This document shows, in pieces, positions 6,365 to 59,342 of a DNA stretch of 64,000 nt. The number at the start of each line of letters is the position of its first letter. Position 1 is the stretch's first letter. Under the pieces are notes generated by a model that saw only the letters and a program-made list of their open reading frames with translations, did no database searches and was not told the origin of the DNA. Source of the stretch: Gammaproteobacteria bacterium (lineage in GTDB: Bacteria > Pseudomonadota > Gammaproteobacteria > HyVt-429); assembly GCA_013152415.1 (NCBI GenBank), contig JAADGI010000019.1, positions 130,000 to 193,999 of the forward strand, read 5' to 3'. The translations under genes were made by a program, and so were the position numbers.

Positions 6365-6387
6365 GTACAACCCAAAAACCTGACGCA

Positions 6388-7515: not shown

Positions 7516-7538
7516 AGTGCAGCAACACCCCAATGACT

Positions 7539-14751: not shown

Positions 14752-15615
14752 ATGATAGGCTCAAACGCACCGATAACAGTATCCAATGACAGCCAAGTCA
14801 ATGGCAGCCAGGGGATCCAGCAAAACCGTGTCAATGCAGGCACTGACGCTGGTGAAACCCCGTTTTCCAATGTCTTCAGCCAGCAATTAAACATGTTCCG
14901 GCTCGGCCAGATGTCGGCCTTGCAGAATATGATGACCCCCTCGATGATGACCGCAGGGGGGCAAGGACTTGCCAACTTTGGCCAATTCTTGCCGGGCATG
15001 TACGGTGCTAACCCACCGTCGCCGGTCACCATAATCAATTACAATTTCTTCAACCTGTCGGAGTCTCTTGGCAGTCCAGAGCAGGCGGATTTGGCACAGC
15101 TCCTGAAGTCCGTGGATCTTAACCAACTCACTGCCGAACCCGGTGTGGATTCGGTTACCGGCCTGAGCAGCGAGCCCCCAGAACTGGCACCTCTGTCATC
15201 CCTACCAACTGCACAAACAGGCAGCGTTAGCATTCCCACAACTCCGGAAGAATTGGGTGGAAAGCTGGCGGAGCGCCTGGCTGCACTGGCGCGGGGTGGT
15301 GATACCGAAATCAAGGCCACAATCGACCATGATGTCTATGGCCCCATCAGCGTAGATGTATCGATACAGGACAACCGGATCACCCTGAATCTATCCACCG
15401 AAGATGCGGGCCTGCGTGCTGCCCTGGAAGCGGCCACAGAGAGCCTCAATAAAAACGTCGCCAGTCAAGGTCTGACACTTGCAGGCTTTACAGTAAACGG
15501 GCTCACCAGCACCGTCGGCAGTGGTGGGACAAGCAGCAATCAGGCTGTGGCCAGCCTGTACAGCTCAATCAATGCCGCATCTTCACCCTTGGATCTAATC
15601 AATAGCACCTCTTAG
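14752..15615 (+). CDS. FliK-like (hook-length control, Flg_hook C-terminal domain) protein
   Basis: The C-terminal EELGGKLAERLAALARGGDTEIKATIDHDVYGPISVDVSIQDNRITLNLSTEDAGLRAALEAATESLNKNVASQGLTLAGFTV matches the FliK/YscP C-domain pattern. The N-terminus is low-complexity and Gln/Pro-rich. No other flagellar genes lie nearby. Confidence 0.45.
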   Translation: MIGSNAPITVSNDSQVNGSQGIQQNRVNAGTDAGETPFSNVFSQQLNMFRLGQMSALQNMMTPSMMTAGGQGLANFGQFLPGMYGANPPSPVTIINYNFFNLSESLGSPEQADLAQLLKSVDLNQLTAEPGVDSVTGLSSEPPELAPLSSLPTAQTGSVSIPTTPEELGGKLAERLAALARGGDTEIKATIDHDVYGPISVDVSIQDNRITLNLSTEDAGLRAALEAATESLNKNVASQGLTLAGFTVNGLTSTVGSGGTSSNQAVASLYSSINAASSPLDLINSTS

Positions 15616-15682
15616 GTACCGCCCAAGCTGCCAGGAATAGGTAGGTGCGTATCAACGCCGGGCATTAAAGCCCGGCCTGATG

Positions 15683-19721: not shown

Positions 19722-19749
19722 ATGTCCTTCCGTCTTATATGAAATTTTT

Positions 19750-42600: not shown

Positions 42601-43568
42601 AATATCCCTACAGGTGAGACTTCTGCTAACACTTGATATCGCCTTTCGCTCTTCCGTAGCGCTTCATTGGCTTGTTTTGCAGTTTCTTTTGATCTGTCCA
42701 GTGCGCTGCCCATATGCCGGGATATTAATGTTGCAATAAATCCTGTGATAATAATAACTACTACCGTCAAGGCTGATGATATAAGCGCCGGATTTATTTT
42801 TGTCATTTGCATTAAAAAGAGAACCGCCACCCCACCAAATACAACCGATAACACCGAGAGAGGCAGGATAAAACGAAGTAAGTAACTGCGCGTAGAAGTC
42901 TCTGTCAAGAACCGCAGAGGGAAAGCATCCCCTTCAGCGGTCAGGATAGAAATGGACAGGAATGCAAAACCCAAAGCTGTCGTCAGTGCCATCGGAATGG
43001 TGGCGCCAAGCCCATAAAGCAGTGGCATCCCATAGAAATAAGCCAAACAGAAGGAAAAACTAATTAGCAGCACGAGAAAGCCCAACCCACTTACAAAATA
43101 TTCCACAAGCGTGTTGCCTTCCGGGAACTTTCGCTTAAAGATGAGAAAGAACACAGCAGTACCTGAAAGAAAAAAGGCGCCCCCCGTGGCAGGAGACATT
43201 CGTGCAATAGGAACCCCATTGAGCTTTCCTACAGCAGGGACAAGTATATCTTCAAAATTAAGGTCTATTCCGCTGAAATACCCAGCGACTTCCAGCACCC
43301 CGAACAGAGATACCAGAAAAGTGATTGCCATAAGGCTGGTTACTTTGGCCCCAGGGTACCGCCTGATATTTAAAACCAACAGAACAAAGCCAAGAATAAT
43401 AAAATTTACCGCTGTACTCGGCGCCATAGGGATATAGCTCTCCCTAACGCTACCGAGCAGACCCATGCCAGGCAGATATCCCACCAGCCCCAGAATTGCG
43501 AACATGATTGCGCCTGATGCGCCAACCGTGGACCATGGCTTCAGTACATTTTTCATGCAGCACTCCAA
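39663..43568 (-). CDS. hybrid sensor histidine kinase (multi-TM N-domain, PAS-GAF-PAS, HisKA-HATPase, C-terminal REC)
   Basis: 1301 aa. About 8 N-terminal TM helices. PAS/PAC repeats. HisKA IAHDFNNILASILGF. HATPase GTGMGLSMVYGII. Receiver ARILIVDDEESIG...DLIITDQTMPG. Confidence 0.85.
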   Translation of the reverse strand: MECCMKNVLKPWSTVGASGAIMFAILGLVGYLPGMGLLGSVRESYIPMAPSTAVNFIILGFVLLVLNIRRYPGAKVTSLMAITFLVSLFGVLEVAGYFSGIDLNFEDILVPAVGKLNGVPIARMSPATGGAFFLSGTAVFFLIFKRKFPEGNTLVEYFVSGLGFLVLLISFSFCLAYFYGMPLLYGLGATIPMALTTALGFAFLSISILTAEGDAFPLRFLTETSTRSYLLRFILPLSVLSVVFGGVAVLFLMQMTKINPALISSALTVVVIIITGFIATLISRHMGSALDRSKETAKQANEALRKSERRYQVLAEVSPVGIFRTDAAGNCLYVNERWCMISGMTFEDAQGEGWIHGIHSDDRKRVFEEWLLAFDNSLPFQSEYRFRTPEGVTKWVLGQARADLNENGVIVGYVGTITDITERKHTEETVHNIAVGVSSQIGEAFFQSLAIHLAKTFNAKYTFIGLLDKQRPGTVDTVALCIQGEVVDGPSYELVRSPCEHVVGVSSSCGVQAYPRDIQYLFPDDPMLKEMGAQSYVGAPLVDTTGKPIGLIVVMDDKPMENAGMVGAILKIFAVRVAAELERLWVEQALRDSEAGLAEAQRMARIGNWELDLVTNKLEWSEEIYRIFEVDPWKIDVTFGTYLDLMHPDDREQVETAYTASLKNKLPYNIAYRIRMPDGKIKHVMARCETFYDDTGNAVRSVGTVQDITEQYQTEQTLRRLNRSLKALSACNEVLVRAEDEAELLNKVCRIIVEISGYRLAWVGFAEHDEAKTVKPMAQAGYDEGYLETVNLTWADTERGQGPTGIAIRSGKLSIIRNILEDPRYIPWRQSALKHGYRSSVALPLKNKEQTFGVLNIYAHEESAFDDEEEVRLLQELADDLAYGIVTLRSHKERHQLNIQLRQAQKMEAIGQLTGGIAHDFNNILASILGFTSLALQRFANNNQPELREYLNEVSQAGERARDLVSQMLAFSRTGSSTVSRVPISPMIKEVVKMLHSTLPSSIELSGHCDTDVPAVMMEPVQLQQVLMNVCINARDAVGGKGRLDIRARRVRIRKNSNQEILQSVPSNAVLRCTCDACHIEIASGNYVELSVQDTGTGISVDELERIFEPFFTTKDVDKGTGMGLSMVYGIIHQHEGHILVDTELGLGTTFRLLLPIAEGVSIHEPGAQSDVKLIPKNLKGARILIVDDEESIGRFMGSLLENRGGKITVLTESRAALDLFSQDPAAFDLIITDQTMPGLTGVELAQKVMALRPELPVILCTGYSEQVDEVKSKALGIRGYLTKPMEIKTLFNMVVKLLAV

Positions 43569-43819: not shown

Positions 43820-46800
43820 TCAGACACTCTTGAGCAGATTTTCAACCAACCCCAGAAATTTATCGGTTTCTATCGGCTTGTCAACATAGCCTCTAATCCC
43901 CAGTGATTTGGCCTTGGCCTCATCAATATACTCGCTATAACCCGTACACAAGATCACCGGTAATTGTGGCCGAATCTCTAACAATGACTGCGCCAGTTCC
44001 ACGCCCATCATACCCGGCATGGTCTGATCTGTTACCACTAAATCAAATGCCTCTGGATTCTGCTTGAATCTTGATAACGCCAATCGGCTATCGGTTACTA
44101 CGGTAGTTTGACAACCATGACTTTTCAACAACTCGCCAATAAAGCCTCCAACCGAAACCTCATCATCCACAATTAAAATGCTCGCATCTAAAGTTGGATC
44201 TGATGATGTCTTCGTATCACTGTCCTGCCTATTCACGGTATCAACCTTTATATCTACTGCTGGGAATAATAGATTGAAGCTAGTGCCTTTCCCTGACCCA
44301 GTCTCCACGATAATATGACCGTCATGATCATGCATAATGCCATGCACCATAGACAAACCCATTCCTGTCCCCTTACCCACCTCCTTGGTGGTGTAAAATG
44401 GGTCAAAGAGTCGATCAAGTTGTTCCACATGAATACCGGACCCGGTATCACGAACAAAAAGCTTAATGTAATCGCCTCTAATCATTTTATGACAGGAATG
44501 ACATTGCTTTACGATATTACTCTCTCGCTGCAATCCGATAGTAAGACGGCCCTTTCCTTCCATGGCATCTCGTGCATTGATACATAAGTTCATGACCAGT
44601 TGATGTAGTTGCACCGGGTTCGTCATGATAGCCAAATTGCCACTCTCCATCTGTAAATCAATCTCGATACTCGATGGCAAAGTAGTACCCAGCATCTTCA
44701 ATGACCCCTTTATCAAGGCCGGCAACACATGCAGATCAAACTCCCCCTCACCCCCACGACTAAATGCCAACATTTGTGACACCAGATCACGTGCCCGCTT
44801 ACCCGCTCTATAGACTTCGCCAAGACAATCTTCAATTTGATTATTATCGTATTGCCCCAGCCCTTCACGCGCCAGTTCTGTGTAACCCATGATTGATGTC
44901 AGCATATTATTAAAGTCATGGGCAATGCCGCCCGTCAGTTGGCCGATGGACTCCATTTTCTGGGCCTGCTGTAACTGTCGTTGTAATTGCCTACGTTCAC
45001 TGATATCGCGCTTAATAGCAATAAAGTGGCCGATTCTTCCGTCCGTATCCAATACGGGTGTGATACTTTCTTCTTCCAGATACAGACTGCCGTCCTTGCG
45101 CTTGTTCCACAGATCTTCATGCCACGTCTTACCAGAGAGTATGGTATCCCATAGCCGTTTGTAGAATGCCTTATCATGTTTTCCGGACTTAACTATCCGT
45201 GGGTTTTTTCCCAGCACCTCACCCAACGTGTAACCGGTTAATCTGGTGTAGGCCGGATTAACCCATTGGATACTCCCGTGCCGATCGGTAATAACAATCC
45301 CGTCAGCCGTCGCCATAAGGGCTGAGGCCTGCAAGCGTGTTTTGGCTTGCGCAAATTCGAGTTCAATTACCTCGGAAAGAATGTTTGCCACCGCCAAAAG
45401 AAAATTACTATCATCTTGGGTAAAAACCCGGTGCTCACTTGTGTGGACACCGAGAATACCAAAGGGTCGGCTCCCCCCATGAATGATGATGCTCATACCA
45501 CTGACCACACCGTGGTCATGCAGCAACTGGGGTCCCGTAAAACGTGTCTCTTGATGCAGGTCTGCAACAATGACCGGATTTTTACAAGCAAGAGTGTAAC
45601 CCGCTTGCGAGTCTATTCCGGCATCCACGATGGCCCGACCCACAAGCCCCTCTTTCCATCCCACACCAGCACGCAATACCAGCGTCTTGGCATCATCAAG
45701 TAACTCCAGAATCTTGCAGTACTCCACCTCCAGGACCTGAGCAATGTACTCAACCGTTGTATCCATCAATGCGGCAAGCTCCATACCTGACAAGGCACGT
45801 TGTCCCAATTCCGCCACTGCCGCTTGTTGGTGTACACGCCTTATCAATGCCTCATCTACTTCCAGACGCCGCACTCTGGCTTGTGCCTGCCACCAGGTGC
45901 CTGCGACCATCAACCCTAACAACGGCATGGCGATCAACGACAGTTTCACAGCAAGGGTGTTCGCAGCAACATCGAGAGTCTTGCCTGGAACGTGGGCGAC
46001 AGCTTTCCAGTGGTATTCCTTATCCTTGGCCCCGTTAGGACCCAACTCGTCTGCAAGCTCCATTCTGGCAAGTGTTTTTCGTCCCTCCCGCAGGGGGTAG
46101 ACTGTAGTAAATGTAAATAAGCCATCACTGGTGTAGAAATGACCCTCATCCACTTTTTCAATTCGCTCCCAAACCCCTGGAAACTGTTTCTTGAATGTGT
46201 GTTTCGAACTCAACTGGGAGCCCCATTTCAATTGCGGACGTAGGCCAAACATCCAGAATCCACTTGCATCCAAAAGCATCACACGATCTGTGGTGTCAGC
46301 TGTCGCCTTCTTGAAGCCCTGTATTAAACTGGAGCCCAGGTAATTAAGGACAACAATGCCCTTTATTTTTTCCTGGCCATAAAGCACCGGGGTTGCCAGC
46401 CGAATAACGGGCTTATATGGCCTTTCCACTTTGCCGTACTCAACATTCAAATCCAAAGGAGAAATAAATAATTCTCCCTTTTTAAGGCCCATGGTGTCCG
46501 TAAAATAACGGCGCTTACTTTTATCTTGTAGTTGATCTTGTGGAACGATATAGGACTGTTTGAGGCCGAGATTTATCCTGATAACCTCCTTTCCGGTTTC
46601 ACCCAGGAAACGGAGCTGATCGTAGTGCCGTTTATTTTGCGAAAAAATCAGAAACTCTTGTGCCAGCTGCCCAAGTCCCTGAAAGGCCTGTTGTGTATTC
46701 ACTGTAATAAATTCACTGTGTTGCGAAAGAACCCTCAAATCGGCAATGGCGGCTTCCATATCCTTTTCCATAACCTGTTTTCCAAGGCTAATATGCAAGG

Positions 46801-46936
46801 TCTCTTCCGCCTCAAGAATGGCTCTCTGCTTCTTGACCCCAGAGGAGTAAAGATAACCAATAACCAGGCCAAAGATGACCACTATTGGTACAAACATGCG
46901 CAGGAATTGCTTAACAATACTTTTGGGTATTTGCAT
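43820..46936 (-). CDS. hybrid sensor histidine kinase (periplasmic Cache-like domain, PAS-GAF-PAS, HisKA-HATPase, C-terminal REC)
   Basis: The start is at the internal Met MQIPKSIVKQ. One TM helix, then a periplasmic sensor, then a second TM. HisKA IAHDFNNMLTSIMGY. Receiver ILIVDDEVSVG...DLVVTDQTMPG. The C-terminal half is paralogous to the preceding kinase. Confidence 0.85.
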   Translation of the reverse strand: MQIPKSIVKQFLRMFVPIVVIFGLVIGYLYSSGVKKQRAILEAEETLHISLGKQVMEKDMEAAIADLRVLSQHSEFITVNTQQAFQGLGQLAQEFLIFSQNKRHYDQLRFLGETGKEVIRINLGLKQSYIVPQDQLQDKSKRRYFTDTMGLKKGELFISPLDLNVEYGKVERPYKPVIRLATPVLYGQEKIKGIVVLNYLGSSLIQGFKKATADTTDRVMLLDASGFWMFGLRPQLKWGSQLSSKHTFKKQFPGVWERIEKVDEGHFYTSDGLFTFTTVYPLREGRKTLARMELADELGPNGAKDKEYHWKAVAHVPGKTLDVAANTLAVKLSLIAMPLLGLMVAGTWWQAQARVRRLEVDEALIRRVHQQAAVAELGQRALSGMELAALMDTTVEYIAQVLEVEYCKILELLDDAKTLVLRAGVGWKEGLVGRAIVDAGIDSQAGYTLACKNPVIVADLHQETRFTGPQLLHDHGVVSGMSIIIHGGSRPFGILGVHTSEHRVFTQDDSNFLLAVANILSEVIELEFAQAKTRLQASALMATADGIVITDRHGSIQWVNPAYTRLTGYTLGEVLGKNPRIVKSGKHDKAFYKRLWDTILSGKTWHEDLWNKRKDGSLYLEEESITPVLDTDGRIGHFIAIKRDISERRQLQRQLQQAQKMESIGQLTGGIAHDFNNMLTSIMGYTELAREGLGQYDNNQIEDCLGEVYRAGKRARDLVSQMLAFSRGGEGEFDLHVLPALIKGSLKMLGTTLPSSIEIDLQMESGNLAIMTNPVQLHQLVMNLCINARDAMEGKGRLTIGLQRESNIVKQCHSCHKMIRGDYIKLFVRDTGSGIHVEQLDRLFDPFYTTKEVGKGTGMGLSMVHGIMHDHDGHIIVETGSGKGTSFNLLFPAVDIKVDTVNRQDSDTKTSSDPTLDASILIVDDEVSVGGFIGELLKSHGCQTTVVTDSRLALSRFKQNPEAFDLVVTDQTMPGMMGVELAQSLLEIRPQLPVILCTGYSEYIDEAKAKSLGIRGYVDKPIETDKFLGLVENLLKSV

Positions 46937-47257
46937 GTAGAGACGGCCACCCTCGACTCGTGATTGTTTGCTCGTCACCAGGTCCACTGCCCCAAGTGCC
47001 CAGCCTTATATCTCAGTCTTTGCTTACAGGCCATCCTGATGGCTGACCATCAATTACAAACGGCAGCAGCAAATCTACGTGAATAAGCTCAAGCCCTTTA
47101 TGTTGAGCCTTCGCCACAAAGAAATAGAATTCACAGGGAAAATATGTCTTATCATCATCTGCTCTACAAACAAACAGGGAAGAGCCCTTCTGTCCATTCA
47201 CCAACACGACTTTTGAAATTCACCCTAGACACCAAATGATAAATTTCTTATTCAGCT

Positions 47258-48337
47258 TCACTGTGATCCCCTGCCCCAATTCAACACACCCGTTGCCGTA
47301 ATATCATCAAATATCTGCGCCCCCAGATCTTTCTTTGTCTGTGCCGGCAATAACAGATCCTGTGGGCGATTGCGTAAAAGCGCCAAAAAAATTGACACCA
47401 ACTCCGGATCACGCCACCCTTTTTGTTTCTCTTCCTCAAAAATCGTAATGACTTCGTCCTTTGATAAGGCCTTTTTGTAGGGTCGTTCACTCACAAGTGC
47501 GTCATAAATATCTACAATCTGAAACACACGAGCCAGTAGCTGAATCTCCTCACCCTTCAGTCCATCGGGGTATCCACCACCATCCCAACGTTCATGGTGC
47601 TGCCGGATGATAGGTAAAGTAAGTTTCATACTTTTCAAACCACCACAAAGGTGGCTACCAATAGTTGAATGCTGGCGCATGATATGCCATTCCTTATCAT
47701 CAAGTGGCCCCTTTTTAAGCAGGATACTATCCGGTATGCCCAGCTTACCGATGTCATGCAACACACCTCCTCGTCTTAGCGCAAGGAGCTCTTGTGAGCT
47801 GAGCCCGAGCTCCTTTCCAAAAACCACAACCATATGCTCAAGGCGCGAACAATGGTCACCGGTTATCTCATCTTTTGCTTCCACCATACGCGCCAAAGCA
47901 AACAGTATAGACTCCATATTGTCCAATTGATCCGTTATACGTTTATTATTTGCGGCCGCTCTCACCCTGGCAACCATCTCCATTGGGGCATAGGGTTTGC
48001 GGATAAAGTCATTCGCACCCGCCAACAGGCTACTTTCAAGATCTTCATTTGCTGTTGTTCCAGTAACGATAATCAGCGGCAATAATGGCATATCGAGATC
48101 ACGACGGACTCGATTACAAACCTCATCACCGCTTATGCCCGGCATGAGTTTGTCCAAAAGAACCGCATCAAACTCATGATCCTTGATACAAGATAAGGCC
48201 TCATCACCCGTTTGTGCCTCCATTACCTCAAATTCTGGTGACGGTAAAATTGCCCTTCCCAGCTTCCGATGTGATTCCTGATCATCAACTATAAGTATAC
48301 GAAAAGGGTGGCTCATGGTAGTCATGCTTGCACTCAT
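47258..48337 (-). CDS. response regulator with HD-GYP domain (putative c-di-GMP phosphodiesterase)
   Basis: REC (ILIVDDQESHRKLG...DAVLLDKLMPG) followed by HD-GYP motifs (GVLHDIGKLGIP, HHERWDGGGYPDGL). Confidence 0.85.
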   Translation of the reverse strand: MSASMTTMSHPFRILIVDDQESHRKLGRAILPSPEFEVMEAQTGDEALSCIKDHEFDAVLLDKLMPGISGDEVCNRVRRDLDMPLLPLIIVTGTTANEDLESSLLAGANDFIRKPYAPMEMVARVRAAANNKRITDQLDNMESILFALARMVEAKDEITGDHCSRLEHMVVVFGKELGLSSQELLALRRGGVLHDIGKLGIPDSILLKKGPLDDKEWHIMRQHSTIGSHLCGGLKSMKLTLPIIRQHHERWDGGGYPDGLKGEEIQLLARVFQIVDIYDALVSERPYKKALSKDEVITIFEEEKQKGWRDPELVSIFLALLRNRPQDLLLPAQTKKDLGAQIFDDITATGVLNWGRGSQ

Positions 48338-48364: not shown

Positions 48365-48949
48365 TTATCGATTTAAGCCAAGATGTTTGATCAACACTTG
48401 TTCATCAATCGGTTTGGGTAAACATACTTCTGCACCAGCAGCCAGAATGTTTTCAATGTTTTCCGGTGAGGGATAACCGGTCATGGCAATGACGCGTATT
48501 GCTTTTGTATTGGGTTCTGTTTTTAATAAATGGCAAACTTGAAAACCATTTAAGCCCGGCATCATTAAATCCAGCAAAACGACGTGAGGTTCAAACTCAC
48601 GGACCTTGAAACCTGCTGCAAACCCATCACCGGCAGTTTCTGTAATAGCTTCATTCTGAAACCCATTCAGGACTTCTACCAAATAACGCATTAACTGCTC
48701 ATCATCATCTACGATGAGAATCCGTAAAGCACCATTATTGCCCGGATTCAAAGTCAAGCCTCTATCCCGCGCAAAGCGTTCCACCTCACCAGGGAGAAAG
48801 CGGCGATGCCCACCTGGGGTGGTTAATGCATTTAAATCGCCCTTTTCTGCCCATTGCCGAACCGCAGTTGGGGAAACCATCAACAATTCAGCGACCTGAT
48901 TGGGTGTTAAATATGATTTCGAAACTACTTTCTTTCTTAGCTTAGCCAC
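48365..48949 (-). CDS. response regulator with N-terminal excisionase/MerR-type HTH (HTH_17-like) and C-terminal REC
   Basis: LTPNQVAELLMVSPTAVRQWAEKGDLNALTTPGGHRRF matches the excisionase-family DNA-binding pattern. RILIVDDDEQLM...VVLLDLMMPG...AMTGY matches a receiver domain. Confidence 0.75.
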   Translation of the reverse strand: MAKLRKKVVSKSYLTPNQVAELLMVSPTAVRQWAEKGDLNALTTPGGHRRFLPGEVERFARDRGLTLNPGNNGALRILIVDDDEQLMRYLVEVLNGFQNEAITETAGDGFAAGFKVREFEPHVVLLDLMMPGLNGFQVCHLLKTEPNTKAIRVIAMTGYPSPENIENILAAGAEVCLPKPIDEQVLIKHLGLNR

Positions 48950-49506: not shown

Positions 49507-49812
49507 GTGATACGAGAACCAAAGGATAATCTTATGCGAAATCATAAAAAAGAAATGGCATCACTTAAATTTGAAGGCGATTGCACAATATATGAAGTAA
49601 CGGAACACTATAAAAGAATTATGGAGGCGATCACCGACACTTCGAATATCAAACTGGATCTCATGGAAGTAGAAACTATCGATAGTTCTTTTATTCAACT
49701 ATTAATTTACACGCAGATAGAGGCCAATAGAAATGAAACACTAATTGATATTAGTGCAAATAAAAAAGTAACTGATTTTATGGCAATGCTTACCCACTGC
49801 AAGCACTGCTAA
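49507..49812 (+). CDS. STAS-domain protein (anti-sigma-antagonist-like), first gene of the che operon
   Basis: About 85-100 aa. SLKFEGDCTIYEVTEHYKRIMEAITD...IKLDLMEVETIDSSFIQLL matches the SpoIIAA/STAS pattern. The start may be at an internal Met. Confidence 0.6.
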   Translation: MIREPKDNLMRNHKKEMASLKFEGDCTIYEVTEHYKRIMEAITDTSNIKLDLMEVETIDSSFIQLLIYTQIEANRNETLIDISANKKVTDFMAMLTHCKHC

Positions 49813-49851: not shown

Positions 49852-52047
49852 ATGTCATTTGATGAAAACACGCAAATATTTATTGCCGAAAGTAACGAAT
49901 TATTGAACGACATGGAAAATGCTTTGTTGGAATTGGAACGCTCACCGAATGATATAGACCTGATCAATCGTGTATTCAGAGCAGCACATACGATAAAAGG
50001 ATCTGCTGGCTTATTCGGCTTTAGCCATATTATTTCATTTACTCATGTTGTTGAGAACCTTCTAGATGATGTACGTAAGTGCACCGTACCAGTCAATAAT
50101 GACCTGATAAGCCTGTTTATGCGGGTAAAGGACCACATGGTTAGCATGATCCAAAACCTAGTGGATGAAACACCGACAGATGAGAATGAAGAAATAATTT
50201 TATTGCGGATGCTAAATGCCTCAAAGGCAGATAAAAATAACGAAAAACAGGAGACAATAACAAAAACGACTATCACACACGAAGAGCACCAAAGTGGGAA
50301 TCTGGTGGTAAGTGATCACTGGCATATTTCAATACGCTTGGGAACAGACACTTTCCGCCAGGGATTTAAGCCCCAACTTATATTCGAACAATTAACAGAG
50401 ATGGGAGAAATTATCTCAGCGAAACTAGTAACCGATTCAATCCCCCTACTCGAAAACTATGATCCTGAGAGTTGCTATCTAGGGTGGGAGATACTTCTTA
50501 AAACTGATGTTGATAAAAATACAATTTCCGGAATATTTGACTTTTTTCATGGTGCCAAAATATCAATTCTACCCCCCAAATCGCTCATATCAGACTATCA
50601 GGACATGCTGGAGAGTTTAGCAGGCGGTGATGAGGCATTGGGCAAGATACTGGTTGAAATTGGTGCGCTTACGGGAAGTGAGTTGCAGCAGGCATTGAAT
50701 CAGCAAAAAGAAAGCGGGGGATTAACGGGTGATATTCTAATTGAGCAAGGTGCTGTTCAACCGGAGGTGGTTAATAGCGCGGTTAAAAAACAACAACAAA
50801 CAAGGGCTGAAAAACAACGTGAATTAAATTTTGTACGTGTCGACTCAAAAAAACTTGACAAATTAGTCACACTCGTTGGTGAGCTTGTGATCAATGGAGC
50901 AAAGGTGTCGCAATTGGCATCTTATCACAAGAACGAAGATCTTAATGGGTCCTTGGAGGAAATGACACTGACACTGGAAGACATGCGGGAAACGGCTCTG
51001 GGGCTACGCATGGTACCTATAGCCAATAGCTTCAACCGTTTTCATCGTGTAATACGTGATACCTCAAAAGAACTAAACAAAAAAATCAGATTGGAAATCA
51101 TTGGTGGTGAAACTGAACTAGATAAAACAGTTATTGAGAGAATAGGTGATCCACTTATGCATCTTATCCGTAATTCAATGGATCATGGTATTGAATCGCC
51201 AATAGAGCGCACCAAAGCAGGTAAACCGGAAGAAGGTGTTATAGAACTCAAGGCATTTCATGAAACCGGTACCATCGTTATTAAGGTAAGCGATGATGGT
51301 GGCGGTCTGAATCCCCAAAAGCTTTTAAAGATCGCCAAAGAGCGCGGAGTGCTAAGGGATGATCAATCACTGTCCGAAAACGAAATTTACAAGCTAATAT
51401 TTGAGCCAGGTTTTTCTACCGCCGAATCGGTCAGTAATATATCCGGACGCGGTGTTGGTATGGATGTGGTAAGGCGTAATATCGAGTCATTACGGGGTTC
51501 TATCTCGGTAAATTCCACACTGGGAAAAGGTGTGACAATGACAATCCGCCTACCATTAACTCTCGCTATTATAGATGGTTTTCACATTTGTGTTTCTAAT
51601 GAATCGTTCATTATACCACTGGATATGTTGGATGAATGCGTAACTATGACGGAAACTCAAAAGCAAGAGGCCGATCTTCATAACTATATTAACTTGCGTG
51701 ATGAGGTACTGCCGTTAATACATATGAATAATTATTTCGGCTTGAGTCCAAAAGCAGAAACAGCAACACGAATGAACATAGTTGTGGTGAAATTTGCGGG
51801 CAGAAAACTAGGGTTGCTAGTAGATAAGCTTCATGGTGAAGCGCAGGCTGTAGTCAAACCATTAGGAAGAGTTTTTCAAGGTGTTAGAGGATTTGCCGGC
51901 TTCACCATACTGGGTAGTGGACAGTTGGCCTTGGTTCTGGACATCCAGGATCTAGCCAAATCCGCCATTGAACACGAGCAACTTGAACAATACCAACAAC
52001 TTCGATCTGCTAAAAATTCGGTCGATCAAACTTTATCTATTCACTAG
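49852..52047 (+). CDS. cheA: chemotaxis histidine kinase CheA with an inserted MshEN-like tandem motif
   Basis: The Hpt P1 domain (AAHTIKGSAGLFGF), dimerisation domain, HATPase (HLIRNSMDHGIE; GRGVGMDVV) and C-terminal CheW-like P5 are present. Residues 264-310 (GKILVEIGALTGSELQQALNQQKESGGLTGDILIEQGAV) resemble the two-part GspE-N/MshEN motif. Confidence 0.9.
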   Translation: MSFDENTQIFIAESNELLNDMENALLELERSPNDIDLINRVFRAAHTIKGSAGLFGFSHIISFTHVVENLLDDVRKCTVPVNNDLISLFMRVKDHMVSMIQNLVDETPTDENEEIILLRMLNASKADKNNEKQETITKTTITHEEHQSGNLVVSDHWHISIRLGTDTFRQGFKPQLIFEQLTEMGEIISAKLVTDSIPLLENYDPESCYLGWEILLKTDVDKNTISGIFDFFHGAKISILPPKSLISDYQDMLESLAGGDEALGKILVEIGALTGSELQQALNQQKESGGLTGDILIEQGAVQPEVVNSAVKKQQQTRAEKQRELNFVRVDSKKLDKLVTLVGELVINGAKVSQLASYHKNEDLNGSLEEMTLTLEDMRETALGLRMVPIANSFNRFHRVIRDTSKELNKKIRLEIIGGETELDKTVIERIGDPLMHLIRNSMDHGIESPIERTKAGKPEEGVIELKAFHETGTIVIKVSDDGGGLNPQKLLKIAKERGVLRDDQSLSENEIYKLIFEPGFSTAESVSNISGRGVGMDVVRRNIESLRGSISVNSTLGKGVTMTIRLPLTLAIIDGFHICVSNESFIIPLDMLDECVTMTETQKQEADLHNYINLRDEVLPLIHMNNYFGLSPKAETATRMNIVVVKFAGRKLGLLVDKLHGEAQAVVKPLGRVFQGVRGFAGFTILGSGQLALVLDIQDLAKSAIEHEQLEQYQQLRSAKNSVDQTLSIH

Positions 52048-52074
52048 TAAATGTATTCCAGTCAGGAGAATTTT

Positions 52075-54096
52075 ATGAAACTCATCGACAATCTAAAGAT
52101 GCGAAATAAGTTTGCATTAATGCTGGTGTTCCCCGTCTTAGGTCTGATTTATTTTGCCATCGCAGAGATATTTATTGAATACAACACCTTGCAGGAAATG
52201 GAGAGAGTTGAGCAACTTTCTACCTATGGGGTCGAAGCCAGTAATCTGGTGCATGAGATACAAAAAGAGCGTGGCATGACCGCAGGTTACCTGGCATCCA
52301 AAGCTAAGAAATTCTCCACTGAGTTGCCCAAGCAACGTAGTATGGTTGACAAACGCCTGGTCACATTAAAGGCCCACCTGAGAGACCATAATACCAAAGA
52401 TTTTGGTGGTGAAAAACTAACCCAGAGAGTCAATGCAATTCTCGGTCTCCTAAGTAATTTACAAGTTAAACGTGAAGAAATTACTGGCCTAAATATCAAG
52501 CAAAAAGATGCAATTGCTTACTTTACCAGCATTAACACTAAGTTACTTGATTCCGTTAGCCTGGTTGCAAGTTTAAGCACTACGGCAGAGATCAACAAGC
52601 TAGCCTCAGCCTATGTTAATTTTTTACAGGCCAAGGAGCGCGCAGGAATTGAACGTGCTGTAATTACAGGTGCATTCGGTGCCGACAAATTTAACGAGGG
52701 TGGTTATGAAAAATTCCTCTCACTTGTTGTGATGCAAGATACTTACATCAATGTATTCAGGTCATTTGCAAATGAAGCCCAGTTAGAGTTTATGGAAGAA
52801 ACCGTAAAAGGTTATGACATTAATGAAGTTGCTCGCTTACGCAGGATAGCCGGTGATGTAGATTCTAGAGAAAAGGGCTTCAATATTGATGCTGCCCACT
52901 GGTTTAAGGTCAGTACTGGGCGTATCAACTTATTAAAGAAAGTCGAAGACTATCTGGCTAATAATCTTTCAGAACGTACAGAAAAATTATTCTTATCAGC
53001 GAACAAAAATTTTGTTAGTGCAATATCCATATCCTCAATCGTTACACTGGTTACATTTCTATTCACATTTCTCGTTGTTCGTGGTGTCACCAGACCATTA
53101 AGTGACGCATTGCTACGGATGAGAGACATTGCAGAAGGGGAAGGCGATCTTACCAAGCGCATCGAAATTAAATCAACGGATGAGATTGGCCAATTATGTG
53201 GTGCAGCCAATACATTCATTGAAAAAATACATGGTGTAATCAGCAATGTCATAGTTAGCTCATCGGACTTGAGTGATGCTGCCAAACAAGTCAGTACTGC
53301 GTCACAGGATCTATCGAGCGGCTCTTCAGAACAAGCGGCCAGTGTTGAGGAAACCTCTTCCTCACTAGAACAAATAAGTGCAACGGTAAATCAGAATGCT
53401 GGCAACGCAAAACAAACTGAGGCCATGGCAACAACAGCTTCTAATCAAGCTGAAAAAGGTGGTGAACAGGTAGCGGAAACCGTTATTGCTATGAAGGATA
53501 TTGCAGAGAAAATTGCCATCATTGAAGATATTGCCTACCAAACCAATTTACTGGCACTCAATGCAGCTATCGAGGCTGCACGCGCAGGGGAGCATGGCAA
53601 GGGATTTGCAGTTGTAGCAACGGAAGTACGCAAGCTGGCAGGCCGCAGTGAATCAGCCGCTGGTGATATCAGCTCACTGGCAAAAAATAGCGTGAGCATT
53701 GCTGAGGGTGCAGGAAAATTACTGGAAGAAATCGTCCCCAGTATCAAGAAAACGGCAGACCTGGTTCAGGAGATCAGCGCATCGAGTGGAGAGCAAGCCA
53801 GTGGCATTGGTGAAATAAACAGTGCCATGGGGCAACTGGATACGGTCACTCAGAATAATGCGGCTTTGGCAGAGGAGCTATCAGCAACCGCAGAGGAAAT
53901 GAGCGCACAAACACAGGCATTGAGTGACATGATGAGCTTCTTCACAGTCGAAGATGGCACTGTTAAATCCAAGCCTATGCCCATTCGGGCCTCGGTAACG
54001 GAACTAAAACCCAAATTAGAAATTAAGAGAGTGATTGAGGGGCATGTTGCTACTGCGAGCAATATGGCTGTTCCCGAAGGATTTCAACGCTATTAG
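52075..54096 (+). CDS. methyl-accepting chemotaxis protein with periplasmic NIT-like sensor domain
   Basis: RBS AGGAGA lies 6 nt before the ATG at 52075. TM1, then about 270 aa periplasmic with an [11 protein letters not shown] motif (NIT-like), then TM2, HAMP, and an MCP signalling domain ([35 protein letters not shown]). Confidence 0.8.
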
Positions 54097-54112
54097 TATT
54101 AGGAGCAATCCA

Positions 54113-54646
54113 ATGAATAATATTGCGCTTGAAAACATTGAACAGCCAATAGATACAAGCCAATTTCTCACCTTTATGCTGTCGGGTGAGGAATTGGCTG
54201 TATCCATCATGCAAGTCAAGGAGGTCATTGAGTACGATAGTTTGACCTCTGTACCCATGATGCCCAACTTTATCTCTGGCGCCCTTAATCTCAGAGGCAG
54301 TATTGTACCAGTTGTTAATCTCGCTATTAAATTTGGTATGCCAGTTTCTGAAATAACACACCGTAGCTGTGTTGTCATTATGGAGGTGATGCTAGATGGC
54401 GAGGAATCTGTAATCGGCATATTGGTGGATAAGGTATTGCAGGTCAACTACATCACAGACGAAGACATTCATGCGGCACCTACGCTGGGCTCTCAGATAC
54501 GGACTGACTTTATTCGTGGTATGGGCAAGCTGAAAGAACGATTTGTGACTATTCTGGCCATCAATAGAGTGTTATCAGAAGAAGAGATTGCAATAGCAGG
54601 CAATATTCAGAAAGAAGATGAAACCCTCATGGAAGCCCGCGCTTAG
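54113..54646 (+). CDS. cheW: chemotaxis coupling protein CheW
   Basis: FLTFMLSGEELAVSIMQVKEVIEY...ALNLRGSIVPVVNL matches the CheW fold pattern. The start is taken at the internal Met of track ORF 54035. Confidence 0.85.
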   Translation: MNNIALENIEQPIDTSQFLTFMLSGEELAVSIMQVKEVIEYDSLTSVPMMPNFISGALNLRGSIVPVVNLAIKFGMPVSEITHRSCVVIMEVMLDGEESVIGILVDKVLQVNYITDEDIHAAPTLGSQIRTDFIRGMGKLKERFVTILAINRVLSEEEIAIAGNIQKEDETLMEARA

Positions 54647-54658
54647 AGATTAAAGAAA

Positions 54659-55534
54659 ATGCAGACTCAAACGTTAAAGCATACAGATGAAATACAAGGC
54701 TATGATGGCATGTCAAATAGGGCACTAAAGGGCTTCCAGACTCTGATATTTAAGGTATCTGGTATCACCATGTCTGATGCTAAAAAATCTTTGATAGCAG
54801 GGCGTCTGACAAAAAGGTTACGTGCTCTTAACCTAAATAGTTATGATGAATACCTGCATTATCTGACAAAAGGAGAAGGTACACATAGCGGTGAAGTTGA
54901 AAACTTTACTAACTTATTGACAACCAATGAAACCTACTTTTACCGAGAACCTCAGCATTTTGCTTTTCTAAAGAAAGAAATTCTCTACAAACACAATTCA
55001 GACCAAGCCATACGTATCTGGAGTGCAGCCAGTTCCTCAGGAGAAGAGGCCTATACTCTAGCTATGGTCCTGGCTGAAGAGTTCGGTGCCAATGCCAACT
55101 GGATGGTAATGGGTACAGATATATCAACCAGCATGATCAAAGCTGCACAACAAGCGATATACAGCGAGCAACGTGTTCGAATGGTCCCTGATGACATTAG
55201 GTATAAATACCTATTGAAAGGGACGGGAGAATACAATGGCTATGTGTCTGTTGTGCCAGAGATAAAAAAACATGTCCACTTCGAGCACTATAACCTGGTC
55301 GAATCTACGCTTAAAACAGAACTATTCGACGTGATATTTTGCCGAAATGTGTTGATTTATTTCAACCAACAAACCAAGAAAAAAGTCATGGAAAGATTGT
55401 GCAGACAATTAAAACAAGGATCATACCTAATGACTGGCCATTCAGAATCCTTGCACGGCATGTTACCAGAACTAAAGTCTGTCAGTCCATCTGTCTATCT
55501 GAAAGCGAATCAAACAAATGGACTAATATCATGA
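54659..55534 (+). CDS. cheR: chemotaxis protein methyltransferase CheR
   Basis: The N-terminal helical domain is followed by a SAM-MTase domain (TNETYFYREPQHF, RIWSAASSSGEEAYTLAM, FCRNVLIYF). Confidence 0.85.
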   Translation: MQTQTLKHTDEIQGYDGMSNRALKGFQTLIFKVSGITMSDAKKSLIAGRLTKRLRALNLNSYDEYLHYLTKGEGTHSGEVENFTNLLTTNETYFYREPQHFAFLKKEILYKHNSDQAIRIWSAASSSGEEAYTLAMVLAEEFGANANWMVMGTDISTSMIKAAQQAIYSEQRVRMVPDDIRYKYLLKGTGEYNGYVSVVPEIKKHVHFEHYNLVESTLKTELFDVIFCRNVLIYFNQQTKKKVMERLCRQLKQGSYLMTGHSESLHGMLPELKSVSPSVYLKANQTNGLIS

Positions 55535-56622
55535 CAAAGACCATCAAGGTCATGGTTGTGGATGATTCTGCTCTGGTCAGAAAGGTCATGACTGAAGTGC
55601 TGAGCAGCGATCCAGACATCACGGTCATTGACCAGGCATCTGATCCCATATTTGCCATGCAAAAAATGGCCAAGGAAATGCCTGATGTCATGACACTGGA
55701 TATTGAGATGCCTCGCATGGACGGCATCACATTCTTACGCAAATTGATGTCTGAGAACCCCTTACCCGTTGTTATTTGCTCAAGTCTGACACATGAAAAT
55801 ACCGATACAACAGTTAGCGCGCTATGTGCAGGTGCGGTGGACATCATAACTAAACCCGCCATTGGCGTAAAAAGCTTTATAGAAGAGTCAAATATCCAAA
55901 TTATAGATTCAATCAAGGCAGCGGCTCAGGCCTGCGTCAAGAAGCGCAAGCCAGGTCACATCAACACAGAATCAAGACATTCTGCCGACGTGATGTTAAA
56001 AAAAATGAGTTCCAATAGTCATGCCATAAGTGAAACTACGGACAAAATCATCGCCATTGGTGCATCTACCGGTGGCACCGAGGCCTTGCGGCAAGTACTT
56101 AAGGCCATGCCCGCCATCACGCCCGGCATACTTGTCGTTCAACACATGCCAGAAAAATTCACAACGGCTTTTGCTGGGCACCTGAATGAAATCAGTGCAA
56201 TGGAGGTAAGAGAAGCAGTACATGGTGATCGATTGCATAACGGTCTGGTATTGCTCGCACCGGGCGGTAAACATCTGCTGCTCAAACGGAATGGAGCACA
56301 ATATCATGTCGATGTTGTAGATGGCCCTCTGGTAAATAGACACAGGCCATCGGTTGACGTTCTGTTCAGATCTGCCGCGCGCTTTGCAGGCACTAATACT
56401 AGTGCCTGCTTGATGACGGGCATGGGTGATGATGGCGCCACTGGATTAAAAGAAATAAGGGACGCAGGTGGCAGAACGTTTGCTCAGGATGAGGAAACTT
56501 CTGTCGTATTTGGCATGCCAAAAGAGGCCTGGAAACGGGGTGCGGCAGAAAAGTTACTCGCATTACAGGATATTGCACCAATGTTACTGAAAACAAGCAA
56601 ACAGGCCTCCAGGCTTAACTGA
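55531..56622 (+). CDS. cheB: chemotaxis methylesterase/deamidase CheB (REC + CheB_methylest)
   Basis: The start is at the internal Met MTKTIKVMVVDDSALV, overlapping the cheR stop (ATGA). REC is followed by the esterase domain with IIAIGASTGGTEAL and HMP motifs. Confidence 0.9.
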   Translation: MTKTIKVMVVDDSALVRKVMTEVLSSDPDITVIDQASDPIFAMQKMAKEMPDVMTLDIEMPRMDGITFLRKLMSENPLPVVICSSLTHENTDTTVSALCAGAVDIITKPAIGVKSFIEESNIQIIDSIKAAAQACVKKRKPGHINTESRHSADVMLKKMSSNSHAISETTDKIIAIGASTGGTEALRQVLKAMPAITPGILVVQHMPEKFTTAFAGHLNEISAMEVREAVHGDRLHNGLVLLAPGGKHLLLKRNGAQYHVDVVDGPLVNRHRPSVDVLFRSAARFAGTNTSACLMTGMGDDGATGLKEIRDAGGRTFAQDEETSVVFGMPKEAWKRGAAEKLLALQDIAPMLLKTSKQASRLN

Positions 56623-56642
56623 TATTCAAGAGGAGAAGGCAT

Positions 56643-57008
56643 ATGGGGAAAAAGATATTATTTGTTGATGACTCAACGTCTATGCGAGAGATCGTTGGCA
56701 TGGCAATGAGTGATGCAGGTTATGAGGTGACGACAGCGGAAGATGGGAATGATGGTGTCGGAAAAATGGAAAATGATAAGTTTGATGCCATTATTTCGGA
56801 CCTTAATATGCCAAATATGAATGGCATTGAAATGATTAAAGCTGCCAAAAATAATGCGAACAACAAATTTACACCGGTCATCATGCTAACGACAGAATCC
56901 AGCGATGACATGAAACAACAAGGCAAAGATGCAGGGGCCAAAGTCTGGATAGTAAAACCCTTTAAACCCGACCAGTTAATTGATGTTTTAAAAAAACTAT
57001 TAGGGTAA
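56643..57008 (+). CDS. cheY: chemotaxis response regulator CheY
   Basis: 121 aa single REC domain: KILFVDDSTSMREIV...DAIISDLNMPNMNGIE...KVWIVKPF. Confidence 0.85.
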   Translation: MGKKILFVDDSTSMREIVGMAMSDAGYEVTTAEDGNDGVGKMENDKFDAIISDLNMPNMNGIEMIKAAKNNANNKFTPVIMLTTESSDDMKQQGKDAGAKVWIVKPFKPDQLIDVLKKLLG

Positions 57009-57022
57009 CGCATGTAAAAGAG

Positions 57023-57625
57023 ATGAATGACTCTGTTAACCGGTATTGGGATAATCGATTTAAACGGCAAACTGTTAAGATTTTGCCGGGTGATTATTAT
57101 GTTTGTGATGGCCAAGAAATGATTGTAACGGTACTCGGATCCTGTATTTCAGCCTGCATACAGGATCAAGTGACAAAGATTGGTGGGATGAATCATTTTA
57201 TGTTGCCCACGAAGAAAGGTCACGATTATGAACAGTCTGTCAATATTACAGATGATACGGATACGGCCCGCTATGGTAATGTGGCGATGGAACGCTTAAT
57301 TAACGATATAGTAAAACTAGGTGGAAACCGTCATAGCATGAGAGCAAAGATATTTGGAGGTGGGCGCATTACCAATACACGTATAGACATTGGTGCAGGG
57401 AATATCAGTTTTGTACATGAATACCTGCATACAGAAGGGATTCAGATTTTATCTGAAGATGTGGGCAATATCTATCCCAGAAAAGTGTATTACATACCAG
57501 AGATCAATGAAGTCTATGTGAAAATAATTCAACACATGAATAATACTACTATTATAGACCGCGACATTAGCTACATACATTCACTTGATAAATATGACAC
57601 AGAAGGTCAAGTGTCTTTTTTATGA
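57023..57625 (+). CDS. cheD: chemoreceptor glutamine deamidase CheD
   Basis: [12 protein letters not shown]...GGMNHFMLP matches CheD signature motifs. Length 200 aa. Confidence 0.75.
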
Positions 57626-57689
57626 ATGGATAGTACTGATTATTTTCCAGATTGAGTCAGGAATCAAATATTTAAAATGGGGCAAGATT

Positions 57690-58955
57690 ATGGAAAAAGA
57701 TAAATCAATACACAAAAAATCACAAATAGTATTTGATGAAAATATGCGATTCGTTTTTGTGCCATGGTCTCTAGGATTATTCTTTGCTTTGTCCAGCATA
57801 TTATCAATATTGAACGATATACATGTCAACCTGGTTATTGCAATGATACTAGCAAGTATCATTAGTTGGGTAACGGGTAATTATGTTTTTCTGACAAAGA
57901 CAAGAACTTACAAAGAGAAAGAGAAATGGGGTAATGCTATCACCTGCAAACTTTCAGATGAATACGAAAAGCTAATGGACCAAGCTGACAATGATCAAAA
58001 TACCCAGTTTGAGCAAATGGAAGATGAGCTTGCACGCGTTAAATCCATACAAGGTGATGCTATTACAGGCGTGATAAAAAGCTTCCAGGGTCTGGACGAC
58101 CAATCTCGCAGCCAACTTGATATGGTATCAAACCTGATCAATCTTGTTACTAAAAGCAGCAGTGGAGATGGTGAAACAAAAAGCGTTCGTGAAGAAGCAA
58201 CGGATATGATAACAATGTTCACTCAAAGTATACAGAAAATGAGTGACGGTAGCATGCATTTGGTCAATTCTATGAATACCATGGACATGAATATTAAGGC
58301 AATCAAAAAACTCTTAGGTGAAATCGATGGTATCAGTTCACAGACAAATTTACTGGCACTCAATGCATCAATAGAGGCTGCTCGTGCTGGAGAAGCGGGA
58401 CGAGGATTTGCCGTTGTTGCCGATGAAGTTAGAGACCTCTCTCAGCGTAGCCACCAATTCAGCAGCGAAATCCGGATGAATTATAGTGAAATAGAAAAAA
58501 CAATGAATGGTGCCAGACAGGTTGTCGGCAAGATTGCAGCCAACGACCTAACATTAACCCTGAGCTCCAAGAATCGCATGGATGAAATCATGACAGAAAT
58601 AGAGCAGACCAATAAGAATATCGGCGATGAACTTCAAAGAGTGTCCAGCATCTCGTCTGAAATCACAAAAAATGTAGATCTTGCTCTCAAATCAATGCAA
58701 TTTGAGGACATGACCAGCCAATTGTTGGTCCACTTATCCAAGCGTGTTGGCGCCCTGCGTGGTTTTACAGATGCATCCTCGGAACTCAGACATGATTTTA
58801 ATGTTGTGAGCCGCAATGACCTTGCCTTGCAGCTTGACGAACATATTGAACATTTGCAAATAGCAATGTCAACTGCCCATAAACTATCAGGAGAGACCGA
58901 ACATGCTCCAGTTCACCAGAAAAACATGGATGATGGTGAAGTAGTATTTTTCTAA
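57690..58955 (+). CDS. methyl-accepting chemotaxis protein (short, two N-terminal TM helices, no periplasmic domain)
   Basis: The start is at the internal Met [10 protein letters not shown]. The signalling domain reads [37 protein letters not shown]. Confidence 0.8.
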
Positions 58956-58967
58956 AGGAGAACGATC

Positions 58968-59342
58968 ATGAGCAGAACAATACTAATTGTTGACGATGAG
59001 CCTTCAGTGCGTAAAATGCTAACCAAGATTCTCAAAGAAGAAGCAGATGTATTTCTAGACGCAAAAAATGGAGTACAGGCAAAACAACTCTGTTACGAAC
59101 AAGATGTTGACTTAATGATTACCGATATAGTCATGCCAGAAAAACATGGGATAGACCTGATTATTGAGATAAAAAAAGAAAAACCAAATTTACCTATTAT
59201 TGCAATATCAGGCGGCGGGGGCATATCTGGCCGGTTTGATTACTTGGAAATTGCCGGGACCCTTGGTGTTGAAAATATATTGCACAAACCGTTTAAGGCA
59301 AGCGAATTAAGAAGTTTTGTCAGATCCGCTTTGAGTGATTAG
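58968..59342 (+). CDS. single-domain response regulator (CheY-like)
   Basis: 124 aa: ILIVDDEPSVRKML...DLMITDIVMPEKHGIDL...LHKPF. Confidence 0.8.
   Translation: MSRTILIVDDEPSVRKMLTKILKEEADVFLDAKNGVQAKQLCYEQDVDLMITDIVMPEKHGIDLIIEIKKEKPNLPIIAISGGGGISGRFDYLEIAGTLGVENILHKPFKASELRSFVRSALSD

Follow-up and report, generated by a model that had tools for sequence, protein, structure and literature searches.

Within a 64,000-nucleotide stretch of DNA from a gammaproteobacterium of the lineage HyVt-429 (contig JAADGI010000019.1 of assembly GCA_013152415.1, positions 130,000 to 193,999 of the forward strand; referred to below as the window), a chemotaxis (che) operon encodes a CheA histidine kinase that raises the question of whether cyclic di-GMP (c-di-GMP), the signal for the motile-versus-sessile decision, is sensed within the kinase itself. 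A tandem motif resembling the c-di-GMP-binding MshEN domain had been proposed for this protein from the nucleotide sequence at positions 50635 to 50790 (the original prediction). Sequence, profile, and structural comparisons confirm the motif and indicate that residues 262 to 314 of CheA are, with near certainty, a genuine MshEN_N module, homologous to the N-terminal four-helix subdomain of GSPII/T2SSE_N. Located between a P2-like domain and the dimerization domain P3, this module is predicted to bind c-di-GMP and in this way to make the kinase output c-di-GMP dependent, a reading that is favored here with some reserve.

The cheA gene is a 731-amino-acid open reading frame (ORF) on the forward strand (49852..52047 in the ORF listing). 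The proposed segment translates in frame, on the same strand, to ALGKILVEIGALTGSELQQALNQQKESGGLTGDILIEQGAVQPEVVNSAVKK (residues 262 to 313), and the complete bipartite unit is one codon longer, extending to Q314 (50635..50793). When compared with the consensus (R/K/L)LGxx(L/V/I)(L/V/I)xxG(L/V/I)(L/V/I)xxxxLxxxLxxQ, taken as two tandem 24-residue copies with about 5 residues between them, motif I satisfies all 9 key positions and motif II satisfies 8 of 9. A relaxed core regular expression derived from Wang et al. (2016, Nat Commun 7:12481) had only two matches within real ORFs in the six frames of the window, both in CheA and 5 residues apart, and the stricter relaxed expression of those authors fails only at position 1 of motif I and positions 1 and 2 of motif II. 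Of the RLG-type bipartite 24-residue motif with a 5-residue spacer described originally, the two motifs and their spacing are present, but neither Arg is (A262 and L291 occupy these sites), and the Leu39 position of MshE is taken by T292.

Profile searches support the assignment. NF053729 (NCBIfam "cyclic di-GMP-binding domain, MshE-related"), which has 53 positions and a curated cutoff of 38 bits, matched whole CheA with 44.1 bits (E = 1.3e-11) and the CheA fragment with 49.1 bits (E = 2e-13) over profile positions 2 to 53. The model was calibrated with proteins from the alignment of Wang et al. The binders Vibrio cholerae MshE, TM0837, Myxococcus xanthus PilB, and NfrB scored 85, 79, 62, and 55.5 bits, respectively, and domain 3 of Deinococcus geothermalis Dgeo_0263, which is a homolog of the binder PilF GSPII-C and not itself a tested binder, scored 52.7 bits. 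Among the non-binders, Xanthomonas campestris GspE scored 16.7 bits, and the PilB proteins of Pseudomonas aeruginosa and V. cholerae gave no match. The score of the CheA module is far above those of the non-binders. Further matches of the fragment were to the models NfrB/PRK15489 and EpsG, over their MshEN regions, and a phmmer search against the PDB matched only PilF, PilB, and MshE chains, including Thermus thermophilus PilF (E = 1.4e-15) and V. cholerae MshE (5HTL; E = 2e-4).

The other half of the profile check, with Pfam T2SSE_N (PF05157), came out differently and gave no match in CheA even at E values of up to 10. In the alignment of Wang et al. (2016), the PF05157 model does not set in until the latter half of motif II, and most of it is devoted to the C-terminal subdomain. 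Because this GSPII C-terminal alpha/beta subdomain is not present in CheA, where alpha4 runs directly into P3 in the full-length model, the miss reflects the coverage of the Pfam model rather than an absence of MshEN_N. The CheA module fits the category "MshEN_N only, no T2SSE_N1" of Wang et al. Modules of this category are missed by Pfam-based annotation and are caught only by NF053729; the precomputed Pfam annotation of all 120 close homologs lists Hpt, H-kinase_dim, HATPase_c, and CheW only, and the proteins are named just CheA.

Structure predictions with AlphaFold2 (AF2), made for the isolated fragment and for full-length CheA (built from 91 sequences), both give the paired helical hairpins that had been anticipated for this segment. 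In the full-length model, the predicted local distance difference test score (pLDDT) is 77 to 83 over residues 261 to 320, and the four helices have MshE-like lengths (Table 1). For the fragment model, MshE and PilF-GSPII domains account for each of the top 13 Foldseek matches in the PDB; most were crystallized with c-di-GMP, and the deviations are 0.9 to 1.5 Å over 52 to 54 residues. The matches to 5HTL, 8PDK, and 8PFA have a probability of 1.0, and their E values stand at about 0.06 because the query is short. The CheA insert is thus modeled as a compact four-helix bundle of two helical hairpins. In the full-length model, the P2-like domain (157 to 240) is followed by a helix at residues 243 to 255, the MshEN_N module, and P3 from residue 332; residues 127 to 153, between P1 and P2, are the sole flexible tether, and the structured module appears to take the place of the usual flexible P2-P3 linker. 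The module had been placed between P1 and the dimerization domain, which is correct with respect to P3; it does not directly follow P1, since the P2-like domain intervenes. No Pfam P2 match was found in this P2-like domain, and the equivalent region is labeled "CheY-binding" in Aeromonas CheA (Wang et al., 2016).

The remainder of the protein is that of a complete kinase. All four Pfam matches (Hpt, H-kinase_dim, HATPase_c, and CheW) are above the cutoff, and the P1 residues H46, T47, I48, K49, and G50, as well as the N-box, G1, and G2 residues of P4, are invariant among 91 homologs. The score with the E. coli-type CheA equivalog NF007835 is 443, below the cutoff of 793, which indicates that the window CheA belongs to a divergent CheA class. 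A DUF4388 match in CheA (E = 0.02 to 0.14) was sub-threshold and was set aside. An identical NCBI protein (P0152), from a metagenome-assembled genome, is named only "chemotaxis protein CheA [Gammaproteobacteria bacterium]."

Table 1. Features of the che locus in window coordinates
Feature	Coordinates	Strand	Basis or remarks
REC-HD-GYP phosphodiesterase gene	47258..48337	-	Pfam Response_reg and HD_5; 27 bp downstream of HTH-REC
HTH_17/MerR-REC response regulator gene	48365..48949	-	Pfam; divergent from che operon
STAS-domain gene, directly upstream of cheA	49507..49812	+	Pfam STAS_2
cheA, P1(Hpt)-P2-like-MshEN_N-P3-P4-P5	49852..52047	+	ORF; Pfam Hpt, H-kinase_dim, HATPase_c, and CheW
P1/Hpt, residues 8-101	49873..50154	+	Pfam PF01627; phospho-His46 in AAHTIKGSAG
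Disordered P1-P2 linker, residues 127-153	50230..50310	+	pLDDT 28, full-length model
P2-like alpha/beta domain, residues 157-240	50320..50571	+	beta-alpha-beta-beta-alpha-beta, pLDDT >80
MshEN motif I, ALGKILVEIGALTGSELQQALNQQ, residues 262-285	50635..50706	+	NF053729 alignment; helices alpha1 263-270, alpha2 275-288
Spacer KESGG, residues 286-290	50707..50721	+	5 residues, canonical length
MshEN motif II, LTGDILIEQGAVQPEVVNSAVKKQ, residues 291-314	50722..50793	+	Helices alpha3 292-298, alpha4 from 304
alpha4 extension (to residue 328) and 3-residue break VRV ahead of P3	50794..50844	+	Model: helix 304-328, break 329-331, helix 332-358
P3 dimerization helices, residues 332-386	50845..51009	+	Pfam PF02895 at 327-382; model helices 332-358, 362-386
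P4 HATPase_c kinase domain, residues 433-570	51148..51561	+	Pfam PF02518
P5 CheW-like domain, residues 579-704	51586..51963	+	Pfam PF01584
Rest of che operon: NIT-HAMP methyl-accepting chemotaxis protein (MCP), CheW, CheR, CheB, CheY (56643-57008), CheD, small MCP, REC (58968-59342)	52051..59342	+	Pfam, ORFs

The module is conserved as a domain would be. A full HMMER scan with CheA residues 150 to 400 (P2-MshEN_N-P3) as the query retrieved 3728 proteins at E < 1e-3 and 1002 at E < 1e-10, and the best 150 representatives (clusters at 50% identity) are nearly all CheAs of about 700 to 750 amino acids that are co-linear over P2-MshEN_N-P3. Among 140 aligned representatives, 95 have at least 8 of the 9 key positions in both motifs and 11 have at least 7 of 9 in both, whereas one or both motifs are degenerate in 34. 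The module thus degenerates where it is dispensable, and the retention of both motifs in the window CheA reflects selection. Across 119 homologs with 47% to 74% identity, the conservation of motifs I and II (0.70 to 0.75, with values of 0.75 and 0.73, respectively) is on par with that of P3 and on par with or above that of P5; the values are 0.65 for the P2-like domain, 0.52 to 0.56 for the alpha4 extension/VRV segment, 0.48 for the spacer, and 0.36 to 0.40 for the P1-P2 linker (102 to 152), the least conserved segment of CheA. The invariant or near-invariant columns are G264, L267, G271, L273, L278, L282, Q285, G293, L296, V302, and Q314; G264, L267, L278, and L282 in motif I and G293 and Q314 in motif II are invariant, and Q285 is conserved in at least 90%. 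These columns correspond to MshE residues with a role in ligand contact or in forming the helical bundle.

The relatives include sulfur-oxidizing symbionts of tubeworms and lucinids, Gallionella, Nitrotoga, Methyloradius, and methylotrophs, and "Oryzomicrobium sp." is among the cluster members. A single-protein scan of a genome collection, which is not a systematic taxonomic census, yielded only a CheA-like locus of Turneriella and MshEN-only matches in Acidobacteriota, and a word-indexed homolog search with a 206-amino-acid fragment returned a single match. The spacer between the motifs is 5 residues long in 58 of the 97 members of the close clade and 13 to 14 residues long in 37. Over the whole family, it ranges from 1 residue in one distant subgroup, through 5 in the window clade and 13 to 14 in the lucinid-symbiont group, up to about 25 elsewhere. 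With a spacer of just 1 residue, the canonical alpha2-loop-alpha3 hairpin would hardly seem able to form, and these proteins may have a different or domain-swapped arrangement. The module is an inherited feature of a large proteobacterial CheA family, whose operons open with a STAS gene and include CheD.

Whether such a module binds c-di-GMP depends on the positions at which it departs from the MshE consensus. At position 1 of motif I (A262), the 97 members of the close clade have Ala (74) or Val (19) and never Arg or Lys, whereas the betaproteobacterial relatives mostly have Arg. At position 1 of motif II (L291), Leu is found in 76 members and mostly Pro in the betaproteobacterial relatives, and at position 2 (T292), Thr is found in 82 members and Leu or Ile in the betaproteobacterial relatives. 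Because A262, L291, and T292 are fixed across the close clade, they do not represent drift. Changes of MshE Arg9 altered the affinity less than 5-fold (Wang et al., 2016, Nat Commun 7:12481). PilF GSPII-B, which naturally has Lys and Leu at the position-1 sites, binds c-di-GMP with a dissociation constant (KD) of 6 nM, and for this reason the consensus was widened to (R/K/L)LG by the PilF authors; its K167L mutant binds with a KD of 2 nM, and the return of either position-1 site to Arg weakened the binding about 25-fold. Pro occurs at position 1 of one motif in NfrB and in PilF GSPII-C, and the latter binds c-di-GMP. Given these data, the lack of Arg in both CheA motifs is no argument against binding, and physiologically relevant c-di-GMP binding by the CheA module, as the Ala/Leu-Thr variant of the motif, is considered probable from its sequence.

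Several observations weigh against this expectation. The real concern is the hydrophobic clusters, since T292 stands at the Leu39 position of MshE and V307 and V311 replace Leu54 and Leu58 (motif II positions 17 and 21). In MshE, L39A weakened the binding 38-fold, L29V 4-fold, and L58A 10-fold, and L10A/L58A abolished it; by analogy, T292 together with V307/V311 may lower the c-di-GMP affinity of CheA. PilF GSPII-A does not bind even with its consensus restored, so the motif by itself is insufficient, and the C-terminal subdomain, which supplies ligand contacts in PilF, is missing from CheA. With NF053729, the module scores toward the bottom of the range of the binders, and the AF2 model of the isolated fragment, with its four helices, has a low pLDDT of 62. 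Enzymes of c-di-GMP metabolism lie near only about 4 of the 10 loci compared (the window and nine homologous loci), and a literature search found no experimental c-di-GMP binding by any CheA-MshEN_N protein. In addition, a big conformational switch should not be assumed, since the apo and holo forms of MshEN_N differ little in PilF.

These observations lend some weight to the view, rated here as unlikely, that the CheA module is a true MshEN_N homolog that does not bind nucleotides at physiological levels and serves instead as a rigid spacer or as a protein-docking surface for the STAS protein or a PilZ-type adaptor. T292, V307, and V311 shrink both hydrophobic clusters, the profile score is low for a binder, and PilF GSPII-A provides a precedent of a well-conserved motif that fails to bind. 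Docking would be analogous to the binding of PilZ by Xanthomonas PilB-N, and X. citri PilB-N:PilZ complexes are the next-best Foldseek matches of the CheA fragment after the MshE and PilF domains; a STAS gene lies upstream of cheA in all 10 loci. However, known non-binders, which have lost Gly at position 3 and Gln at position 24, score no higher than 17 bits, whereas both Gly and both Gln of CheA are invariant or nearly so in the 119 homologs. The deviations are fixed in the clade and do not drift (Thr at 292 in 82 and Ala or Val at 262 in 93 of the 97 members), and PilF binds more tightly with hydrophobic residues at position 1.

A second alternative, purely speculative and very improbable, is that the clade variant (motif I, Ala/Val-Leu-Gly; motif II, Leu-Thr-Gly-Asp) has changed its specificity in favor of another cyclic dinucleotide, for example 3'3'-cGAMP, and that its motif II accepts a non-guanine base. 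V. cholerae MshEN binds cGAMP weakly (Wang et al., 2016), and the polar Thr at a base-stacking position is found in motif II only and is clade-fixed, with Leu or Ile kept in the betaproteobacterial relatives. On the other hand, the specificity of MshEN is set by the main-chain amides of positions 3 and 4 (Wang et al., 2016), which are kept in both motifs, and no cGAMP synthase or other supporting gene was seen in the window. A chance match of low-complexity helix in an ordinary P2-P3 linker, to which the Pfam T2SSE_N miss and the commonness of Gln- and Leu-rich helices might point, is refuted by E values of 1e-11 to 1e-15 against independent libraries, a fold that agrees with MshE and PilF, domain-level conservation with a structured prediction, the canonical 5-residue spacing, and more than 1000 library matches at E < 1e-10, the top 150 of which are co-linear CheAs, and it has next to no probability.

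If the CheA module does bind c-di-GMP, one molecule would most likely lie across the two helical hairpins. Guanine O6/N7 would be recognized through the main-chain amides of G264/K265 and G293/D294, stacking on the bases would be provided by two hydrophobic clusters (L278/L282/T292 and L263/V307/V311) along with A262 and L291, and Q285 and Q314 would contact the ribose-phosphate. Because alpha4 is only 3 residues from the first helix of P3 and there is no flexible P2-P3 linker, the ligand could alter the presentation of P1/P2 to P4 or the seating of the kinase in the receptor array, and the kinase output would thereby depend on the c-di-GMP level, with either sign of effect conceivable. The fold of PilF GSPII-B hardly changes between the apo and holo states, and the ligand unwinds the first turn of alpha1 and re-orients the neighboring subdomain that touches the exposed ligand. 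By analogy, c-di-GMP may alter the junction of helix 243-255/P2 with alpha1 in CheA, and another surface (P3/P4, P1, or STAS) could pack onto the bound nucleotide.

The genes around cheA bear on this mechanism to different degrees. The relatives share the gene order of the che operon, and the STAS gene is immediately 5' of cheA in 10 of the 10 loci; its product may work specifically with CheA proteins of this class, and possibly with their MshEN_N insert. A DSS motif is retained in the STAS protein, comparable to the serine that can be phosphorylated in SpoIIAA-type antagonists. The HD-GYP phosphodiesterase of the divergent operon, which had been cited in support of c-di-GMP sensing, is present with intact motifs (HD194 and HHERWDGGGYP) but is a weak argument. 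An HD-GYP gene is found at none of the nine homologous loci, and a conserved HD-GYP partnership was accordingly rejected; the link is at best specific to the window genome. The HTH-REC gene flanks the STAS-cheA cluster in three of the nine relatives' loci, and the co-orientation of the REC-HD-GYP gene with this cluster-associated regulator ties it loosely to the che system. In these three relatives, HTH-REC is co-directional with STAS-cheA, whereas in the window it is inverted, with the REC-HD-GYP gene 27 bp beyond it, suggesting that a phosphodiesterase was recruited to the che-associated regulator through a local rearrangement. Speculatively, the adjacent REC-HD-GYP protein could close a feedback loop in the window genome. 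In an extended and improbable version, the Ala-Leu-Gly/Leu-Thr-Gly-Asp variant would be a tuned sensor, of lower affinity or altered specificity for cyclic dinucleotides, that gates CheA in a closed loop, in which CheA phosphorylates REC-HD-GYP (and HTH-REC) and the altered c-di-GMP level acts back on the kinase, so that the che cluster would act as a second-messenger homeostat and not as a simple taxis pathway.

At the other loci, the clearest contextual link of this CheA family to c-di-GMP turnover is that of Methyloradius palustris (AP024110), in which the che operon includes a PAS-GGDEF-EAL gene (14525-16330), placed between cheW and cheR, and cheB is followed by a MASE1-GGDEF gene (18926-20395). 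Near cheA, pelD-G and a gene for an EAL hybrid kinase occur in one metagenomic relative, and a tubeworm symbiont has a GGDEF-EAL gene 8 kb from cheA. No c-di-GMP genes were found within 10 kb at five loci, one of which was partly listed. The proximity of c-di-GMP genes is therefore suggestive and not demonstrably above background.

Other features of these loci concern the inputs and outputs of the che system. The first chemoreceptor of the window operon (52051-54096, forward strand) has a NIT (nitrate/nitrite-sensing) domain, as do the equivalent MCPs of three relatives, a hint at a response of the system to nitrate or nitrite. In Candidatus Nitrotoga, flagellar genes (flgF-L) immediately precede the STAS-cheA(MshEN_N) cluster (locus 1-7672), which suggests that flagellar motility, and not some other cellular function, is under the control of this CheA class. 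Beyond the HD-GYP gene, the window encodes two very large hybrid histidine kinases with PAS/GAF-HisKA-HATPase-REC architecture, one of them with a Cache-like sensor (39663-43568 and 43820-46987, both on the reverse strand); in the relatives, the gene after the second REC gene of the che operon encodes a smaller PAS hybrid kinase. Farther away, a 1426-amino-acid ORF with a C-terminal Peptidase_C25 (gingipain-like) domain (7759-12039, reverse strand) lies among the housekeeping genes for DnaB, AlaRS, aspartokinase, RNase R, PurA, and HisZ.

The architecture is less unusual than was first implied, because the same CheA layout has already been catalogued. Wang et al. (2016, Nat Commun 7:12481) named CheA in the main text as a partner of MshEN, and their Supplementary Table 4 and Fig. 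3c give the Aeromonas veronii CheA as HPT-CheY-binding-MshEN_N-dimerization-HATPase-CheW, with insert residues 260 to 342 aligned. The window CheA shares with it the domain order, the insertion site (about 260 to 342), a motif II ending in GAV...V..A.KKQ, and the lack of Arg at position 1 of motif I (Met-Leu-Gly in Aeromonas). However, the Aeromonas protein has a longer spacer, QA + 5 + AP, and Lys-Leu-Gly in motif II, compared with the canonical 5-residue spacer and Leu-Thr-Gly in the window CheA.

The better-characterized MshEN proteins differ more. V. cholerae MshE (5HTL) has the same two 24-residue motifs and 5-residue spacer, and its N-subdomain matches that of CheA with 1.2 to 1.5 Å over 53 to 54 residues at 36% to 37% identity. 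In contrast, MshE has Arg9/Arg38 where CheA has A262/L291 and Leu39/Leu54/Leu58 where CheA has T292/V307/V311; it also contains a C-terminal subdomain, is fused to a type II secretion/type IV pilus ATPase instead of a histidine kinase, and has a measured KD of 0.5 μM. T. thermophilus PilF GSPII-B (8PDK; K167L mutant, 8PE0) gives the best fold matches (0.9 to 1.0 Å) and likewise has non-Arg residues at position 1 of both motifs (K167 and L196, the latter equivalent to L291), whereas it keeps L197 at position 2 of motif II, possesses a ligand-touching C-terminal subdomain, and has its measured nanomolar affinity. E. coli NfrB, a c-di-GMP-activated glycosyltransferase, resembles the window CheA in that MshEN is fused to a non-ATPase enzyme and that position 1 of motif I is not Arg (Pro in NfrB), but its MshEN is C-terminal rather than internal and its partner enzyme is another one.

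In the PilZ-domain chemoreceptors (Cbp1/Tlp1), MapZ-CheR1, the Cle CheY-like proteins, and PlzC-CheX, the c-di-GMP level likewise influences the chemosensory output, as is predicted for the window CheA. These routes use PilZ or ARR-type receptors that act on the receptor, methyltransferase, motor, or phosphatase, and none has its binding site in CheA. The window CheA therefore joins a known, predicted architecture, with a clade-specific variant of the motif. The residue-level predictions for the module make the c-di-GMP hypothesis directly testable. A large CheA family carries the module, yet Pfam-based annotation overlooks it. If the predicted binding is true, a nucleotide site in CheA itself would be the most direct known coupling of c-di-GMP to a chemosensory kinase, bypassing PilZ adaptors, receptors, and motor brakes.

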